This document shows, one piece after another, positions 3,921 to 21,134 of a stretch of 64,000 nucleotides of DNA (the first letter of the stretch is position 1; the number at the start of each line of letters is the position of its first letter). The stretch comes from an uncultured delta proteobacterium (lineage in GTDB: Bacteria > Myxococcota_A > Polyangia > Haliangiales > Haliangiaceae), in the NCBI GenBank assembly GCA_963848295.1, contig CAWKDB010000004.1, forward strand, positions 256,001 through 320,000, written 5' to 3'. The position numbers were made by a program, and so were the translations under genes. The notes under the pieces were generated by a model. That model saw only the letters and a list, made by a program, of their open reading frames with translations, was not told the origin of the DNA and searched no databases.

Positions 3921-6548
3921 GTGAAGTCGGGCGATACGCTGGCGGACGACGACACCGCACGGCCCGGTGCGGCCACGATCCCGGCGGGTGGAGTGCGTTC
4001 GCCTGTGGTCGAGCTGCAGACTGTCGATCCGGTGGTCTACCAGCGGCTCCACGAGATCGCCCGCGGTGGGATGGGGCGGATCACCGTGGCGATCGATCGC
4101 CGCCACGGTCGCTCCGTCGCGATCAAGGAAACGCTCGGCGACGGTGACACCACGCGCTTCGAGCGCGAGGCGTTAGTCACCGCGCGCCTCCAGCACCCGG
4201 CGATCGTCCCGGTCTACGAGGCGGGGCGGTGGCCAGACGGGACACCGTTCTACGCGATGAAGATGGTCGCCGGACGCCCGTTGGACAAGGCGATCGCAGA
4301 GGCGGCGACGCTCGAAGCGCGCTTAGCTTTGCTCACGCACGTGCTCGCCGCGTGCGAAGCGCTCGCGTATGCGCACGACCAGCGGATCATCCATCGCGAT
4401 CTCAAGCCGTCGAACGTCCTCGTCGGGAGTTTCGGCGAGACCGTCGTGATCGATTGGGGGCTCGCGAAAGTCTTGGGGACGGCGGACGCGGTCGGCGTCT
4501 CGAGCTCGACGCCCAGTGGCGAGATGACGGTCGCGGGCGACGTGCTCGGCACACCGCAGTACATGCCGCCCGAACAAGCGAGCGGCCAAGAGGTCGACGA
4601 ACGCGCCGACGTCTACGCGCTCGGCGCGATGCTCTACCACGTGCTCGCGGGCGCGCCTCCGTATGAAGCCGCGCCGGTCCACGTCATGGTCGCCTCCGTG
4701 ATCGACGGGCCGCCGCTACCGCTCGAGCGCCGCGCGCCCGAGATTCCGCACGACGTGCTCGCGATCGTCGCCAAGGCGATGTCCCGCACGCCGGAGGCGC
4801 GCTATCGCGATGCACGCGACCTGGTCGATGACTTGCGCCGGTTCCAGACCGGGCAGCTCGTCCGCGCGCATACCTATACGCTGCGCGAGCGAATCACGCG
4901 CTTCGTGCGGAGAAACCGCGCGGCGACCGCGATCGCGGCGGCGGCGGCAGTCGCGCTCGGCATCGGTACCGCGATCGCCGTCCACCAAGTGGTCGACGAG
5001 AAGAACGTGGCGGTCACGCAAGCGGAGCGCGCCGACGCCGAAGGCGGCGATGCTGATCTCCTCGCGACGCAAACGCTCGCGGAAGCAAGCACCGCGCTCG
5101 ACCGCCTCGGCCACATCGATCTGCTGGAGTCGATGGCGCGGCGCACGGTGGAGCACTACGAGCGCATCGAGCGAGGAGGGCGGCTCACGGATCGTCGGGC
5201 CGTCGCATATGCGCTCGCACTCGAGGCATTGTCGCGCTCCGAGGTCAAGGTTGGACGCGTCGCCCAGGCGACCAAGCTGCTCGATCACGCCCGGCATGTG
5301 CTCGCAAGAGAAACGTCGGGCGCGCCCGGCCTCGACGCGATGCGCGCGACCGCGAGCGTGGCGCTGCATCAGAGTGCGCTCGACCGCGCGACCGGCGACA
5401 CGCAGGCGGTGATCGCCCACGCCGGTGAGGCTCGCGACTGGGCGACGCGGGCGTTGGCTGTCGATGCCCGCGACCCTCTCGCGGCGCAGACGTTGGCGGC
5501 CGCGTTGATGACGATCGCGAATCGCGACCGCGCGGCCGACGACCTGGCGAACGCGCGCAGCAACTACGAGCGCGCGAAGACCTTGCTCGACGCGCAGGGC
5601 GGGGATCGCGATGCCGCGATCCTGGGCGCGCAGCTCGACTGCGAGCTCGGCTATCTCGAGCAAGGCTTGGGGCACCTCGATCTTGCGAGCGCGCGGTTCG
5701 AAGCGGCGATCGACAAGACCAGGGCGGTGCTCGTCGCGGCCGCGACCTCGCCTGACTTGGGAGCGCTCGAGTGGCAGGTCGAAGCGGATAACGGGCTCGC
5801 CGGGCTCGCGAGGCTGCGCGGGCAGCTGGCGGAGGCCGCGCGACGCAGCGCCGACGCGATCGACGGCTCCGCTCGGCTCACGGCGGCCGATCCCGACAAC
5901 AAGGTGTTTGCGTCAGAGCTGGCGTTGGCGCGCACCGAATCCGCGGAGATCGCGATCGCTTCGCACTCGCCGGACTCGGCCGCGGCCGAGCTCGAACAAG
6001 CGCGTGCCCAAGCGCACCGCCTGACCGAAGACGAGCCCGACAACCGCCTGTGGTGGCGCGATTCTCGCTCACATCGAGCGCGTACGCGGCGACCTCGCCG
6101 GCGAGCATCACCAACTCGCGGCGGAGCTCGACGCATACGTCGCGAGCAGCGAGGCCGCCCAGCACGCGCTCCGCGGCGAGCACGATCCCCTCGATCTGCA
6201 TCAGCTCGTCTGGGCGCTCGAGCTCCAGGGCGAGGTGCTCGAGGAGCTGAATCGGCGCGACGATGCGATCGCTCGCTACGCCGACGAGCTGAGGACCGCG
6301 ACCGAGCTCGTCGCGACCGGGCGTGAAGGCAAGTCCTGGCTCTCGGATCTAGCCGACGCGGAGCAGCACCTCGGCGCAGCCCGGTTGCGACGCGGGGACG
6401 CGGACGCGAGGTCGATGCTCGAGCGGGCCGCGCAACACCAGCGCGAGCTCGTCGCCGCGCACCCCGACGATGCGAGCGCGCGCGAGGATCTCCAGGACAC
6501 GGAGCGACTACTCGGGACGGGCGGCGGCACGGCACTCACCGCCCGTGA
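3921..6548 (+). CDS. Ser/Thr protein kinase with TM segment and TPR-like C-terminus (frameshifted near 6065; 3' end approximate)
   Basis: IARGGMGRI, VAIK, HRDLKPSN, DWGLAK, GTPQYMPPEQ, DVYALG. The helical repeats continue in the frame of ORF 6235. Confidence 0.88.
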
Positions 6549-10880: not shown

Positions 10881-10992
10881 ATCGCGCGCAGACGCGCGCC
10901 TCGGGCGCGGCACCGAAGGTCGCACGAGCTCGCGCCACGCGCTCCCGCGGTAGCCTTCTCGGACTTCGCATGGATGCGCGTACACTCGCACG

Positions 10993-11370
10993 ATGGCTCA
11001 GCCCACCGTCACGATCTTCCACAACCCTGGTTGAAGCACCTCCGTCTACGCCACGGCGGTCGCCGAGGAAGCCGGAGTGTCTTATCGCGCGGTCCAGTAT
11101 GCGAAGAAGGCAGAGCGCCCGGATCGAGCCACGCTCGAAAACCTGGTCGCGATCATCGAGGATCCCGTCGAGGATCTCGTGCGCAAGGACTCGCTGTTCA
11201 AGAAGCTCGGCCTCGATCCGGCCGACTACGTGAGCAAGCCGCGCGCGGTCGTCGACATCCTGGAGAAGTACCCGGCGCTGCTCCAGCGCCCGGTGATCGT
11301 GCGCGGCAAGAAAGCGATCATCGGCCGCCCGCGCGAGCGTGTGCCCGTGTTTCTGAAGTCCAAGCCCTGA
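10993..11370 (+). CDS. arsC: ArsC/Spx-family (glutaredoxin-type arsenate reductase family) protein with in-frame UGA, probable selenoprotein
   Basis: ATG at 10993 reads MAQPTVTIFHNPG-[TGA 11032-11034]-STS..., in frame with ORF 11077..11370 (LLQRPVIVRGKKAIIGRPRE). The TGA sits at the catalytic Cys of the ArsC HNPxCxTS motif. Confidence 0.85.
11037..11079 (+). promoter_or_regulatory. Candidate bacterial SECIS hairpin
   Basis: CTCCG...CC-A-CGGC[GGTC]GCCG-A-GG...CGGAG; the apical loop GGUC (11058-11061) begins 24 nt after the UGA, like the E. coli fdhF SECIS loop. Confidence 0.65.
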
Positions 11371-11486
11371 TCTGCAGGGTTCGCCGGCGTCGCTCGAGCT
11401 GCGCATCACGTTTGTCCACGACGCCGCGTTCGAGAGTAGTTTGGGCGCTCTGGAATAGGCCGATCGCGTCGGGCGTAGACGCAGCG

Positions 11487-12623
11487 ATGACCTCGAGCAG
11501 GCGACTCGCCGTTGCGTCCCTGTGCGGGGCGTTGCTCGTCGCGAGCGTCGCCGGCGAGTCCGCGGCTGCCGATCTCTCCGACATCGCGCGCTTCCTTGCT
11601 GGCAAGGGCGTCGCGCCCGACTCGAAGCTCGCCGAGCAGGCTCGAACGCAGTCGTATGTAGAGTACGCCGAGCAGATACGGTCCGGCTGGAAGCAGTTTC
11701 AGCAGCCGAACCTCGAGCGCATGCGGAGCTGGTGGACGGGCCGTGCACCGGCGAGGTACTCGACCGTGTTTTACGCGTTCAGCGGACCCGATATCGGGAA
11801 CGCGCTTGTCCTGTTCCCCGACGCCGACACGTATCTCATGTTCGGCCTCGAGTCCCCGGGCGCCATTCCGGACTTGCAGGACATGGACGAGGACGAGATC
11901 AGCTCGGGCTTGAACGAGCTCGAGGCGTCGCTGAGCACGATGCTCCAGGTGAACTACTTCTTCACCAAGGCCATGGAGAAGCAGCTGGGCAAAGGGCCGT
12001 TCAATAGCATCAGCAGCCTGCTCCTGTTCTTCCTCGGCATGAACGACTGCGAGGTGACGGGGGCGAGGAGGATTGCCATCGGTCCGAGCGGCGCCGTCGT
12101 GCAGGGAATGGCCGCCGACGACTCCGCGAGCGGACGTTCCCGCTCTCGTGTCCCGGGAGTCGAGATGACGTTTCGACGACGTGGCGGCAAGGAGCAGACC
12201 ATCCGCTACTTCATGGTGAACGTCGCGGATGCCGACCTCGCGAAGAGCTCACCCGAGCTCATGCCGTACCTCGAGAGCCAAGGACGTCTCGTGACCATGA
12301 TCAAGTCCGCGTCCTATCTGATGCACAAGGAAGGCATCGAAGAGCCGGCGCACTTCGAGCAGATTCGCTCGCTGATCCTCAGGCAGAGCGACTTCGTCGT
12401 GCAGGACGATTCAGGCGTACCGCTCAGGCTGTTCGCGCGCGACACGTGGACCCTGCGGTTTCACGGCAGGTACGAAGCGCCCACTCCAGAGTTCGCAAAA
12501 TATCTCGAGAAGGACTTGAAGATCGAGATGCAGAGGAACTCCTCGGGGAGGCTTCCATTCACCTACGGCTACGCCTACCAGCAGGGCGAGTCGAACCTCA
12601 TGACCGCGGAGCGAGCTCGGTAA
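11487..12623 (+). CDS. Conserved secreted hypothetical protein
   Basis: Signal peptide MTSSRRLAVASLCGALLVASVA; conserved-looking motifs FYAFSGPD, NYFFTKAM, KSASYLMH, QDDSGVP, LPFTYGY. The ORF-track start at 10974 is too far upstream. Confidence 0.75.
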   Translation: MTSSRRLAVASLCGALLVASVAGESAAADLSDIARFLAGKGVAPDSKLAEQARTQSYVEYAEQIRSGWKQFQQPNLERMRSWWTGRAPARYSTVFYAFSGPDIGNALVLFPDADTYLMFGLESPGAIPDLQDMDEDEISSGLNELEASLSTMLQVNYFFTKAMEKQLGKGPFNSISSLLLFFLGMNDCEVTGARRIAIGPSGAVVQGMAADDSASGRSRSRVPGVEMTFRRRGGKEQTIRYFMVNVADADLAKSSPELMPYLESQGRLVTMIKSASYLMHKEGIEEPAHFEQIRSLILRQSDFVVQDDSGVPLRLFARDTWTLRFHGRYEAPTPEFAKYLEKDLKIEMQRNSSGRLPFTYGYAYQQGESNLMTAERAR

Positions 12624-12639: not shown

Positions 12640-13740
12640 ATGGTCAAGACCAGACAGCTACGCGTGGTGGGTTTGCTTCTGTGCTCGGCGGCTTGCGCCG
12701 GCCGGCAGAAGGCCGCCGAGGGCATGATTCCAGTCGCGAAGGCGATCACGATCTATAGCGCCGGTGGGAGCGTGGTCTCGGGAGTCATCGACCCGGCCGC
12801 GCTGGGTGCTCGCAGGCTTCGTCTGCCCGCGTCCGTCGCGGCCATCAGTCTCTCTCAGGCCGACCAGAGCTTGAAGTGGTTCACCGTCCAGGCGATCCCG
12901 GACACCAAGAAGGATGTGACCCACAAGCTCGTCGGGCTCCCTTCGCTGAAACCCGGAGCGCTGAAGTTCAACTACGCGTTGCCCGATATCACGTGGGCCC
13001 TCCAGCTGAAAGCGGAGATCACCGATGCGAAGTCGGTGAGCCTCCAGCTCCTGGCCGCGGTCAACATGAACGCGAGCGATCCATACAAGAACTGCGACGT
13101 CACCCTCGTGCTGAACAACGCGGTGAGCGTGGAGAAGCTCTCAGGGTCCACGTTCAAGCTGAGCTCGTTTGACCTCTATCCCCATCGCAACATCACCTAC
13201 AGCCTCGGCACCAAGGTCGCGGACTATTCGTTCATCCGCGAGTGGAATGCCTACGCGGGCAAGGACGAGGTCCACGTCCTGCTACAGGTGAAGAACCCGT
13301 TCTCGGTCGATCTGAACCAGACCAGCAGCTCCGTCGAGGCCAACCAGATCATCGTCGAATCGGGCACGATCAGCGACGAGACCGGGCCCGGAGCGGTGAT
13401 CTCGCTGCCGGCAGGGATCGATGACACGATCTCCACCTTCCGCTCGGTCAAGATCACCGAAGCGACAGACAAGCGACTCCTGCCGTTCAATCACCGAATC
13501 TCGTACGACATCGTCAATCGATCCGATCAACCGAAGACGCTCCGGCTCGTGACCTCACGGGTGATGGGCAACGAGCACCGCTCGGTCTATCACTTCACTC
13601 AGCCGCCCGACGCCACCCCGGACAATACGCTCGTCTGGATCCTCAAGCTCGAGCCGGGGAGCACCCGTACTCTCGAGTACGACTTCGACGCCGACATCAA
13701 GGACGTCGACGGCGAGAACGGATTCGAGCAGGGAGGGTAG
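12640..13740 (+). CDS. Lipoprotein, DUF4139-like beta-sandwich
   Basis: SD AAGGAG; lipobox AAC; C-terminal LVWILKLEPGSTRTLEYDF resembles DUF4139 ends. Confidence 0.65.
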   Translation: MVKTRQLRVVGLLLCSAACAGRQKAAEGMIPVAKAITIYSAGGSVVSGVIDPAALGARRLRLPASVAAISLSQADQSLKWFTVQAIPDTKKDVTHKLVGLPSLKPGALKFNYALPDITWALQLKAEITDAKSVSLQLLAAVNMNASDPYKNCDVTLVLNNAVSVEKLSGSTFKLSSFDLYPHRNITYSLGTKVADYSFIREWNAYAGKDEVHVLLQVKNPFSVDLNQTSSSVEANQIIVESGTISDETGPGAVISLPAGIDDTISTFRSVKITEATDKRLLPFNHRISYDIVNRSDQPKTLRLVTSRVMGNEHRSVYHFTQPPDATPDNTLVWILKLEPGSTRTLEYDFDADIKDVDGENGFEQGG

Positions 13741-13788: not shown

Positions 13789-15027
13789 TCATCTCGGCAT
13801 GACCCGCTGGCGCTGTAGCTCGATCAGCGTCCCGCTGCGCGAGTCGGTCACTCGCACCTGCGTCGTATCGACCACGACCAGGCCGGTCAGACACGCGGTG
13901 GACGCCGCGCAGGTGTCGCTCGTCGTGTAGATCGTACGAGCTTCGTTCGCGGTCCCGTCGACGGTGCCTCTGCCGTCGGCGAGCACCATCCGCACGGTGG
14001 TCCTCGACGTCACGAACAGGTTGCCGATCTCGTCGCACCCCAGGCCCGCCGGCGAGTCCACGGGAAGCATGTTCGCCGGCGCGCCATCGCCAGACGATGT
14101 CGTGGTCCCGTTGCCGAAAACCGTCGTGATGGACCCGGCTGTGGTCACACGGCGGACACGATCGTTGCCCGTATCGGCGACGAACAGGTCGCCATTGCCG
14201 CACCAGGCGACCGCGTGCGGCTGATAGAGCTCCGCGCTCGTGGCCGGGCAGTCGCTCCCCTCAGGGGGGCAGTCTCCGAAGAACCCGAGCATCTGAGGGG
14301 TTCCGGCAACCGTGGTCACGGTGGTGCCGGCGATCTCGCGGATGACGTGGTTGCCGGTGTCTGCGATGTACACGTTGCCGAGTCCGTCGACCGCGAGGCC
14401 GGTCGGAGCGACGAACCGGAACGATGCGCTTGTCGCCGGACCGTCGTCGCCGCCGAAACCGAAGTCCCCGGTCCCCGCGATCGTGGTGATGACGCCGCTG
14501 GTCGCATCGACCCGGCGGATCCGACCGTTGCCGGTGTCGCCGATGTACAGGTTGCCGGCGCCGTCCAGCGCCACGCCCGATGGGAGATCGAGTTGGGCGT
14601 TCGCGGCGGAACCACCATCGCCAGAGAACCCCGCGGTCCCGGTGCCGGCGACCGCGGTGACCGCGCCGGTCGATGCGTCGACCCGGTCGACGATCTGGCC
14701 GCCGGTGTTCGCGAAGTACACGTTGCCGTTCGCGTCGGCCGCCACGCCCGTCGCGCTCGGTGCCGGCGAGGCGGTGACCGCGGTCGCCGTCGCCTGCCAG
14801 TTGGTCTGCTCGCACGCGCCGCGTTGACACACGCCGAATGGCACGGCAATGCAGTTCGTGCCCTCGGCGTGACTTGCACATCCATTCACCAGCGCTGGAT
14901 CGATGCAGCCGCCGCCTTGCGGCTCGCACACCGTCGACGTCGGACACGTCGTCCCGTCGGCGCAGGTCGTCGTCGTCGGCGTGAAGCACCCGGCGAGCGC
15001 GGCGAGCGAGAGCGCGGCACGCTTCAT
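13789..15027 (-). CDS. NHL-repeat lipoprotein (short paralog)
   Basis: MKRAALSLAALAGC lipobox; Cys-rich N-domain; NHL repeats (GVALDGAGNLYIGDTGNGRIRRVD); ATGA overlap with the upstream gene. Confidence 0.9.
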   Translation of the reverse strand: MKRAALSLAALAGCFTPTTTTCADGTTCPTSTVCEPQGGGCIDPALVNGCASHAEGTNCIAVPFGVCQRGACEQTNWQATATAVTASPAPSATGVAADANGNVYFANTGGQIVDRVDASTGAVTAVAGTGTAGFSGDGGSAANAQLDLPSGVALDGAGNLYIGDTGNGRIRRVDATSGVITTIAGTGDFGFGGDDGPATSASFRFVAPTGLAVDGLGNVYIADTGNHVIREIAGTTVTTVAGTPQMLGFFGDCPPEGSDCPATSAELYQPHAVAWCGNGDLFVADTGNDRVRRVTTAGSITTVFGNGTTTSSGDGAPANMLPVDSPAGLGCDEIGNLFVTSRTTVRMVLADGRGTVDGTANEARTIYTTSDTCAASTACLTGLVVVDTTQVRVTDSRSGTLIELQRQRVMPR

Positions 15028-18000
15028 GGGGCGGGGAGGCGCTCCAGCTCGATCAGCATGCCCGTGCAGGAATCGGTGATGCGCACGTGCGTGGAATCGA
15101 CGATGGCCACTGCCGTGAGACACCCCGTCGTCGAGGCCGGGAAGGTCGTACGAGGCGGCGCACCGTAGATCGTGCGTACCGGCCCGGTGCCGTCGACCAC
15201 GCCCGCGTCGTCGGCGAGCAGCATCCGCACGGCGTTCGTCGACGTCACGAACACGTTGCCGACATCGTCGCAGGCCAGGCCGAGCGGAAAGTCGACAGGT
15301 AACTCGCTCGCTGGCGCGCCCTCGCCCGATGACGCGGCGGCGCCGTTACCGAGCACCGTCGTGATCGTGCCGTCGGCGGCGATCCGACGCACGCGCTGGT
15401 TGCCGGTGTCGGCGACGAAGATGTCTCCGTTGCGGCACCCGGTGAGCGCCCGCGGCTGATCGAACAGCGCCCCCGACGCCGGGAGGCCGTCGCCGGAGAA
15501 GCCGGCCGTCTGGGGCGTGCCGGCGAACGTCGACACGGTCGCGCCGGTCGCGTCGATGGCGCGGATGACATGGTTGCCGGTATCGGCCACGTAGACGATG
15601 CCGGATGCAGGATCGCGGTAGAGACCGGTCGGGTCGGACAGCTCGGCGGTCGCGCTCGGTCCGTCGCGCCAGCCGGCGACGCCCGACGCGAGGTCCGCGA
15701 TCGTCCAGGTCTCCGGGGTCGCGGGATCGGTCACGGTCACGACGTGCACCAGCTCGTGGCCGGCTTCGGTCGGGTTGGACTCGGTCAGATAGATCGATGT
15801 GACGCCATCGAAGGCAACGCCGGCCACGTTGCCGAAGTTCTGATCGCGGAACCTCGCGAGGTTACTCGTCGCGGTTCCGACCGCGTTCGGATAGCGACCC
15901 GTGACGACATCGAGCGAGGTCGCGTCGACCGCTTCGACAGTCCCGCTCGTGCCGCCGGCGACGAGCTCGAATGGCGCGGCGGTCACCAGCGCTCTGGGAT
16001 CGGCGAGCCGAGCCTGGGCCAATGGCCCGGTGCCCGCCGGATCCACCGGCCCCGCAACGGTCGTGATGAGGCCGGCGGTGTCGATGCGGCGGACATGGCC
16101 GCCGGGGCTGCTGGAGGCGTCGGTGACATAGATCTGCCCGAGTGTGTCGACCGCGACCCCCAGAGGGGCGAGCAGGGCGGCTGTAGCGGGGCCGCCGTCG
16201 CCGTCGCCGTTGATTCCGACGTCACCGGTGCCCGCGACCGTGGTGATGACGCCAGCCGTATCCACCCGCCGGATGCGGTTGTTCTGCGAGTCGGCGATGT
16301 AGAGGTTGCCGAGCCCATCGATGGCGACCCCCGTAGGCGTGTACAGCTCCGCGGTCGTCGCCGCGATGCCGTCGCCGTTGTACCCGGAGGTTCCCGTGCC
16401 TGCGATCGTCGTGATGATACCCATCGTGTCCACGCGCCGAACGCAGTAGTTGTACGTGTCGGCGATGTAGACGTTGCCGAGCCCATCGACCGCGACGCCA
16501 CGGGGATAGTGCAGCTGCGCGGCGGTGGCCGCGCCTCCGTCGCCGCTGTAGCCGAGCGTCCCGACGCCCGCGACGGTCGTGATGACGCCGGTCGTGTCCA
16601 CGCGCCGGACCCGGTTGTTGAAGGTATCGGCGATGTAGAGATTGCCGGCCGCGTCGACCGCGACGCCGTAGGGGAGAGACAGGTTTGCTGCGGTCGCGGC
16701 GCCGCCGTCGCCGCTGTACCCAAGGGTCCCGGTGCCCGCGACGGTCGTGATCGTGCCGTCGGGATCGACGCGCCTGATGCGGTTCTTGGACTCGTCGGCG
16801 ATGTAGATGTTGCCGAGTCCGTCGATCGCCACGCTCTCGGGGGCGCTGAGCTCGGCGGCGGTCGCGGCGCCGCCGTCGCCGCTGTACCCGAAGGTCCCGG
16901 TGCCGGCGACCGTGGTGATGACGCCGGAGCTGTCGATGTGTCGGATCCGGCTGTTGTTGGTGTCGGCGATGTAGACCTCGCCGAGGGCGTCGATCGCGAC
17001 GTCGTTCGGGTCGCCGAGCTGGGCGTCGGTCGCGGCGCCGCCGTCGCCGATCGTCGACCCGCCCCCAGCGATCGTCGTGACATCTCCGGCGGAGTCGACA
17101 TACAGAATGACGTCGTGGTCGGTGTCGGCGATATAGGTCCCGAGCGCGTTGACCGCCACACCGTGCGGCGAGCTCAACGTCGCGGACGGTGTGAACGGCT
17201 CGACGTTGCCTGCCATGTCCAGGTCCAGGATGCGGCCGTTGCCCGAGTCGGCGATATAGACGTCAGCCCCGTAGGTGGTGACGCCGAACGGTTGGTCGAG
17301 CCCGCTGGTCGGGGCGAACGTCGTGATCACGCCGCTGGTGTCTACGCGACGGACGCTGTTGTTGCCGGTGTCGGCGATATAGACCTCGCCGTTCGCGTCG
17401 ACCGCGACCCCGTACGGTGAGGACAACTGCGCGCTGGTCGCGGCGCCGCCGTCCCCCGCGGACCCGAGAATCCCGGAGCCCGCGATCGTCGTGATGATGC
17501 CGGCGCTGTCCACGCGCCGGATGACATTGTTGCTGGTGTCGGCGATGTAGAGATCGCCGAGGCCGTCGACCACGACATCAGCGGGGTAGTACAGCTGCGC
17601 GCTCGTCGCCGGGCCGCCGTCTCCGGAATCGCCGTGGTTCCGGGGGAGGCCGCTGCCCGCGACCGTCGCGATGATCCCCTCGGTGTCGATGCGCCGGATC
17701 CGGTTGTTCCCTCGGTCAGCGATGTAGACTTGGCCGAGCCCGTCGACCGCGACACCTTGCGGCGTATCCAACTCCGCCTCGGTCGCGGCGCCGCCGTCGC
17801 CAGCGTATCCCTCCGTTCCGGTGCCCGCGATCGTCGTGAGGAACCCCGCGGTGTCGAGGCGCAGGATCCGATGGTCAGACGTGTCGGCGATGTAGAGGTT
17901 GCCGGCCTGATCGACCGCCACGCGAAACGGACTCGAGAGCTGGGCGGTCGTCGCGTTGGCTTGCCCGCCGATCACCACCGTCGCTTGCCACGTGGTCTGC

Positions 18001-18220
18001 CCGCACACACCTTGCTGGCACACTCCGAACGGGAGCGCCGAGCAGTTCGCGCCTTCGGCTTCGCCGGTGCACGCGGTCACGAGAGTCGGATCGACACAGC
18101 CGCCGCCAGCCGGCGCGCATATCGTCGACTCGGGGCAGGTCGTGCCGTCGGTGCACGTCGTCGTCTGCGGCGTGAAGCAAGCCGCGAATACCGCGAGCAC
18201 ACCGAATGCGATCGCGCGAG

Positions 18221-18224
<4 letters not shown>
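15024..18224 (-). CDS. NHL-repeat lipoprotein (long paralog, 1066 aa)
   Basis: Lipobox FAAC; many repeats GYSGDGGAATAA.L..P.GVAVD..GN.YIADT.N.RIRRVD. Confidence 0.93.
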
Positions 18225-21103
<2,879 letters not shown>

Positions 21104-21134
21104 CACCGTGATCGTATCAGTTACCATCACCTCG
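21104..21134. promoter_or_regulatory. Back-to-back -10 boxes (putative bidirectional leaderless promoter)
   Basis: Minus-strand TACGAT (21111-21116) is 7 nt before GTG 21103; plus-strand TACCAT (21122-21127) is 7 nt before GTG 21135. Confidence 0.6.

Follow-up and report, generated by a model that had tools for sequence, protein, structure and literature searches.

A UGA codon at the catalytic position of an ArsC-type gene is very likely read as selenocysteine

The window, the whole stretch of 64,000 nucleotides that was analysed, contains a gene for a 125-aa ArsC-type protein in which a UGA codon occupies the place of the catalytic cysteine. The gene is intact, and this UGA is very likely read as selenocysteine (Sec), aided by a conserved RNA hairpin. 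The gene joins the UxxS "arsenate reductase" selenoprotein family, predicted since 2005. Its main features are as follows.

10993..11370, + strand: coding sequence (125 aa) of a glutaredoxin-type ArsC-fold protein with a UxxS motif (U14-S-T-S17), from the frame, the profile match and the fold
11032..11034, + strand: in-frame TGA in the column equivalent to the catalytic Cys12, putative selenocysteine 14, from the homolog column and an assembled contig

The frame that starts at ATG 10993 reads MAQPTVTIFHNPG*STSV and is then open up to the terminal TGA at 11368-11370. As the earlier note had claimed, TGA 11032-11034 is the sole internal stop of this frame, with the ArsC domain continuing after it, and the ORF list truncates the gene, giving at this locus only a 97-aa remnant with a GTG start (11077-11370). 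The best 16 database protein matches were likewise short (86-105 aa, with query coverage of at most 83%), as would be expected if gene callers truncate the relatives too. These short matches, together with the frameshifts of two homologous loci (L054 and L106), are what favours taking the TGA for a nonsense mutation or an assembly error in a pseudogene, or regarding the 97-aa form started at GTG 11077 as the real product. We consider this very improbable and already largely refuted. TGA has been retained at this column across several phyla and is never replaced by TAA or TAG, conservation extends over the 13 preceding codons, a promoter-like hexamer precedes the ATG, and the 97-aa form would be without the catalytic residue. 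Moreover, the codon was checked against assembled contigs of public DNA runs, and in the one of four runs that spans it (depth 2.45) an independent contig covers 10932-11100 with 0 differences and has TGA at 11032-11034, not the TGC or TGT that would have spoken against selenocysteine. The annotation is thereby corrected, the catalytic residue being restored to a gene that is kept truncated in databases.

The state of the catalytic column was then compared among homologs. Among 60 genome loci, 59 were readable (the exception, L054, is frameshifted) and comprised 21 TGA, 36 TGC and 2 TGT, while a scripted count over 76 metagenome loci, some of which duplicate genome loci, gave 11 TGA and 58 TGC, with 5 loci unread and 2 mis-registered. 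Neither TAA nor TAG was found at this column in the readable loci of both sets. Because one search pattern included the Cys, the Cys counts are inflated. The in-frame UGA is thus aligned with a conserved Cys of the homologs, and the pairing of Cys and TGA on which the earlier reading turned was borne out. The records with TGA forms carry the titles Kofleriaceae, Acidimicrobiia, Thermoleophilia, and Verrucomicrobia. Four loci (L023, L025, L052, and L053) are titled Bifidobacterium or Bifidobacteriaceae, but their proteins group with Acidimicrobiia and Thermoleophilia in the tree, and these titles are probably mislabels. On a 75-row tree, which has few columns, gives no direction of change and lacks L157 (missed by the script), the Sec and Cys forms switch repeatedly within the clade, with 6 changes, 3 of them forced by starred branches. 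The Sec machinery was commoner where the column is TGA. With the genome of L054 left out, selA was found in 19 of the 21 TGA-genomes (one partial and below cut-off) versus 5 of 15 close-clade Cys-genomes, one of these five (G006) being unpublished; tRNA-Sec scored above 53 bits, a line set post hoc, in 18 of 21 versus the same 5 of 15. These co-occurrence counts treat kin as independent, and the carrier genomes are related.

The window's own genome (7.78 Mb, 85% complete) encodes selA, selB, and selD, all above curated cut-offs in a profile search, together with a tRNA-Sec that scores 67 bits and has a TCA (UCA) anticodon. All four components whose absence would have told against the earlier reading are therefore present. 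They lie on contigs C2 and C10 and the window on C4; the tetranucleotide correlation between C4 and the two machinery contigs is 0.996-0.997. A different possibility is that UGA stands for Trp or Gly throughout the genome, or is read as Cys instead of Sec. Some Actinomycetota and Verrucomicrobiota are reported to use UGA for Trp (PMC13462651), and at least three of 120 database homologs (P0082, P0097, and P0120) have W at the column. A Trp, however, would be implausible where Cys is otherwise invariant, and gene callers probably produced these entries as artefacts. TGA is the commonest ordinary stop of the genome, ending 1788 of 3361 long genes, and it also ends the present gene where its homologs end; genome-wide reassignment was therefore rejected, and we give this possibility as a whole next to no credence. 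In our judgement UGA 11032-11034 is very likely read as selenocysteine. As for the wider use of the system, SelD (G000:C10:3584927-3585883) is a cysteine form (GGGCAAKL) and internal TGA was found in none of the 4 molybdopterin-family matches of the genome, so that small redox proteins seem to be what the Sec system is used for.

Downstream of the codon lies a predicted bacterial SECIS element (bSECIS) with the following parts.

11051..11068, + strand: upper stem-loop of the predicted SECIS, from the core sequence, folding and published bSECIS constraints
11058-11061, + strand: GGTC apical loop, closed by CGGC/GCCG
11056-11063, + strand: conserved SECIS core GCGGTCGC, from the comparison of TGA and Cys genes
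about 11036 to 11080, + strand: looser lower stem of the predicted SECIS, from folding

The earlier note had placed a SECIS-like hairpin with a GGUC loop 24 nt downstream of the TGA. The loop indeed begins with the 24th nucleotide after the codon, but the stem begins earlier. The claim of a hairpin of this kind was strengthened by its core, which is conserved and tied to the TGA state. The core GCGGTCGC was found in 24 of 30 TGA genes (the window's included), in 0 of 22 Cys genes and at 25 of 1788 ordinary TGA stops. Within the core the four-fold codons hardly vary (GCG in 17/17, GTC in 17/17, GCC in 21/22), those elsewhere are mixed, and the GC3 of the genes with these frozen codons spans 0.39 to 0.95. 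The published consensus requires a loop of 3-9 nt whose first two places contain G, an upper stem of 4-16 bp, a spacing of 16-37 nt, and an MFE at or below -7.5 (PMC13188914); the window offers a GGTC loop, a spacing of 23 nt, and -11.8 kcal/mol for 11039-11075, with -7.4 kcal/mol for the upper stem-loop 11051-11068 alone. This rule, as applied here, is a loose approximation distinct from bSECISearch, and it lets through 35% (629 of 1788) of ordinary TGA stops and, among Cys genes, 12 of 22. The folding energy of the hairpin did not exceed the chance level (z between -1.23 and +0.66), and covariation in the stem was no better than in shuffles, 275 of 500 of which reach its score, the stem being invariant and not compensated. 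The stem is paired in 84.7% of cells, versus 31-68% for slid pairings. It is the conserved core and its link to the TGA state that provide above-chance evidence for a SECIS, which folding energy by itself does not. The remaining 6 of the 30 TGA genes lack the core, and five of them form a Thermoleophilia-type group (L047, L051, L052, L053, and L098) with a different hairpin, GCAAYGC-CGTGC-GCRTTGC, 15-33 nt past the TGA column and so roughly as far from it as the GGTC hairpin, which suggests a second SECIS solution within the same clade. In the window's gene, SelB with Sec-tRNA would bind the GGUC loop 23 nt downstream and insert Sec14.

The protein obtained by reading through the UGA matches the ArsC family PF03960 over residues 9-117. 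Its structure model (pLDDT 91) has ArsC proteins as top fold matches, followed by Spx and YffB, and aligns with E. coli ArsC at a TM of 0.77; ArsC is best both by profile and by fold, as the earlier assignment of the domain had it. The predicted structure is thus of the ArsC fold of glutaredoxin-dependent arsenate reductases, and alignment with E. coli ArsC places Sec14 at the Cys12 position and recovers the triad Arg60/Arg94/Arg107. The other active-site positions, all from this alignment, are as follows.

11020..11022, + strand: His10 (equivalent to E. coli ArsC His8), invariant
11044..11046, + strand: Val18 (equivalent to E. coli Arg16), variable in the clade
11182..11184, + strand: Arg64 (equivalent to E. 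coli Arg60), invariant
11287..11289, + strand: Arg99 (equivalent to E. coli Arg94), invariant
11326..11328, + strand: Arg112 (equivalent to E. coli Arg107), invariant

H10, U14, S17, R64, R99, and R112 are invariant in 61 of 61 aligned sequences, with column 14 counted as Sec or Cys, and correspond to H8, the C12 position, S15, R60, R94, and R107 of E. coli ArsC. Fold and catalytic residues are shared with E. coli R773 ArsC (PDB 1i9d, 1jzw; TIGR00014). In contrast to that enzyme, the window's protein has Sec for Cys, 28% identity, Val at R16 and no C-terminal extension, its gene lies outside an ars operon, and its score for TIGR00014 is below the equivalog cut-off (77.2 vs 106.05 bits). The earlier note had taken the Val in place of Arg after the TS as a sign that the substrate may not be arsenate. 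This argument fails: the R16 position is occupied by K, R, Q, S, or V among the TGA forms and is likewise variable among the clade's Cys forms, with the arginine triad invariant, so Val18 tells nothing specific on the substrate.

The Spx motif is CxxC. Spx and YffB (TIGR01617; PDB 1z3e, 1rw1, 2kok) share the common fold family with the present protein, and the TIGR01617 and Spx models match it weakly (39 and 37 bits), which together with the fold matches could point to a redox regulator of Spx/YffB type instead of an enzyme. These scores are lower than those for ArsC and below cut-off; the protein contains one Cys/Sec only, in a UxxS motif without CxxC; and its arginine triad, described as essential in E. 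coli ArsC, is complete, whereas YffB keeps one of the three arginines (PMC3169414). Such a regulator is scarcely conceivable here. The "Arsenate reductase-like" UxxC selenoprotein (GOS "ArsC 2", NF041106) is also related to ArsC and has Sec at the first redox position, but the window's protein is UxxS and NF041106 is not among its NCBIfam matches.

The combination of PF03960/COG1393 with UxxS defines the predicted Sec family "Arsenate reductase (ArsC 1)", and the window's protein has it. This UxxS family was predicted in 2005 from 14 Sargasso Sea sequences (PMC1088965), was represented by 77 sequences in GOS (PMC2398784), and is tabulated as "Arsenate reductase" or "ArsC 1" (COG1393, pfam03960, TIGR00014; UxxS) in PMC9312934 and PMC13188914. 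The gene is one more member, with a TGA that pairs with a homolog Cys and a stem-loop just downstream that has G in its small apical loop. The published family came first from marine metagenomes; in contrast, the nearest named relative of the window's protein is a Kofleriaceae (Myxococcota) MAG (97%). The likeness to the published family is one of descriptions and not of an alignment, so the sub-clade is not thereby fixed. The functions of such predicted selenoproteins are still largely uncharacterized according to a 2026 review (PMC13188914), and a Sec form of B. subtilis ArsC has been engineered (PMC4150793). Nothing further on the window's ArsC-type protein stands in the available portions of PMC13326102 and PMC4150793, and ArsC is not mentioned in that of bioRxiv 10.64898/2026.04.03.716425. 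Our literature search, with most subscription papers outside its scope, yielded no assay of a natural Sec ArsC and no work on orphan arsC; it also found none joining selenoproteomes, SECIS, and Myxococcota, and supplements and BSepDB, which were outside its scope, may list these taxa. The window's protein, a selenoprotein of 125 aa with natural Cys forms close to it and with a short GGUC SECIS whose sequence is frozen, makes a convenient test case for what Sec contributes to the chemistry of ArsC and for whether the substrate is arsenate.

One further feature precedes the gene.

10981..10986, + strand: TACACT, a -10-like TAnnnT hexamer 6 nt before the ATG, from comparison of homologs

A TAnnnT hexamer stands 5-8 nt upstream of the ATG in 26 of 35 homologous genes (the window's included), versus 100 of 7000 random positions, and no Shine-Dalgarno motif was seen upstream of ATG 10993. 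This arrangement suggests a leaderless-type transcript and promoter. A sigma-70 two-hexamer scan returned 0 promoters and did not report the TACACT hexamer; its terminator-like match falls inside the gene and was ignored. The gene stands alone. DNA similarity to the closest copies (86-95% identity) is limited to 10972-11375, that is, the gene and its -10-like hexamer, and the flanks of these copies all differ from those of the window, while L019 and L079 have flanks in common with each other. On such comparisons the stretch 10972-11375 behaves like a self-contained portable unit. None of the three proteins next to the gene in the window had a match at any of 143 homolog loci. In a Pfam scan of 100 ORFs neighbouring the gene at 30 selected loci, no redox or arsenic gene recurred; the one LMWPc neighbour, at L045, is of tyrosine-phosphatase type. 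The gene has 95% DNA identity to its copy in the genome G001, against 86% in the selA region and 89% in the gene downstream, which is suggestive of a recent transfer, although purifying selection on a short gene explains the 95% as well. Of the 36 other genomes of the genus, among them the unpublished G047, a close ortholog was found in 1 and selA in 34.

Several neighbours in the window can be described. A 378-aa ORF (11487-12623, +) begins like a signal peptide, has no match in Pfam or NCBIfam, and recurs in G001 at 89% on another contig; with a DUF4139-like ORF (12640-13740) it forms a stretch of lower GC (61-64% vs about 68%). Two adjoining large ORFs at 13789-18224 (-) consist of many short glycine-rich repeats, presumably NHL-like, and Ser/Thr kinase-like ORFs lie at 3921-6326 and 18221-21130.

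What the enzyme acts on can be weighed from its active site and from the arsenic genes of its carriers. We incline, if only slightly, to the view that the product would be a glutaredoxin-type arsenate reductase like that of E. coli, with arsenate as its physiological substrate. In the reaction of that type, the arsenic-bearing enzyme is resolved by glutathione and glutaredoxin, a step that belongs to established knowledge and to the name of TIGR00014. In a monoselenol ArsC, the arginine triad would hold arsenate, the Sec14 selenolate would attack it, glutathione and glutaredoxin would release arsenite, and an unlinked Acr3 would export it. The selenolate chemistry is drawn by analogy with E. 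coli ArsC, for which a thiol-arsenic adduct is described (PMC3169414). The window's genome has every component in trans: gshB above cut-off, 5 glutaredoxin-domain matches, and acr3. The last belongs to an ars cluster (G000:C10:3875208-3879191, L163) with an arsJ-like gene, an LMWP arsC, arsR, acr3, a second LMWP arsC, and arsM, on a different contig (C10) from the selenoprotein gene (C4).

Alternatively, the protein is a genuine selenoprotein with another substrate, a stand-alone ArsC-fold selenol oxidoreductase whose arginine pocket would take a different anion and whose reductant would mostly not be glutathione. We consider this a serious possibility that falls short of probable. It agrees with the sub-cut-off TIGR00014 score, with the two other arsC genes that the genome already has in its ars cluster, and with the largely uncharacterized functions of such selenoproteins noted in PMC13188914. 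Neither the window nor any TGA locus examined shows ars linkage: acr3, arsR, arsM, and LMWP-arsC were not found in the flanks of TGA loci, among 143 loci examined with flanks of up to 3 kb, often shorter. Among 36 carrier genomes, gshB was above cut-off in 3 (33 without), acr3 was found in 3, and an ArsB-family match in 3; in 32 neither of the two pumps was found, so that the glutathione/glutaredoxin system and an arsenite pump, present in the window's genome, were not found in most other carriers. For most of these, which are MAGs, completeness is not reported, and the ArsB control was positive in no more than 2 of the 14 reference genomes; the gaps in pumps and gshB therefore mean "not found" and not "absent"; the arsenite exits covered were Acr3 and ArsB only. 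A search for mycothiol ligase gave 0 of 36 above cut-off, with matches of 400-421 bits in 13 genomes. Against another substrate stands the whole ArsC catalytic set, invariant here and reduced to one of three arginines in YffB. The earlier doubt about arsenate thus loses its Val argument but persists on other grounds: the gene is unlinked to the ars cluster, and neither Acr3 nor ArsB was found in those 32 carriers.

A bolder form of this alternative extends it to the clade in Myxococcota, Acidimicrobiia, Thermoleophilia, and Verrucomicrobia, which would be a leaderless, mobile, glutathione-independent selenoenzyme with an ArsC site that serves another anion. We hold this to be unlikely; if true, the clade would not be an arsenic-detoxification family, and the name "arsenate reductase" would have been wrong since 2005.

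Two further selenoprotein candidates were seen in the genome. A gene at G000:C2 ~299280 (-), which we take to be rhodanese-like from its sequence likeness, has an in-frame TGA in CHNES-U-HAC (UxxC), followed by a 7-bp hairpin whose GGTC loop lies 20 nt after the TGA and which has the same GCGGTCGC core as the arsC-type gene. Three rows of PMC13188914 give rhodanese forms as UxxS, UxxG, and CxU, and UxxC is not among these rows. The third candidate of the genome is an AhpC/TSA-family gene at G000:C10 ~807164 (-), with a TGA in frame within RGYW-U-PWC and a hairpin of 7 bp whose loop reads GGC.
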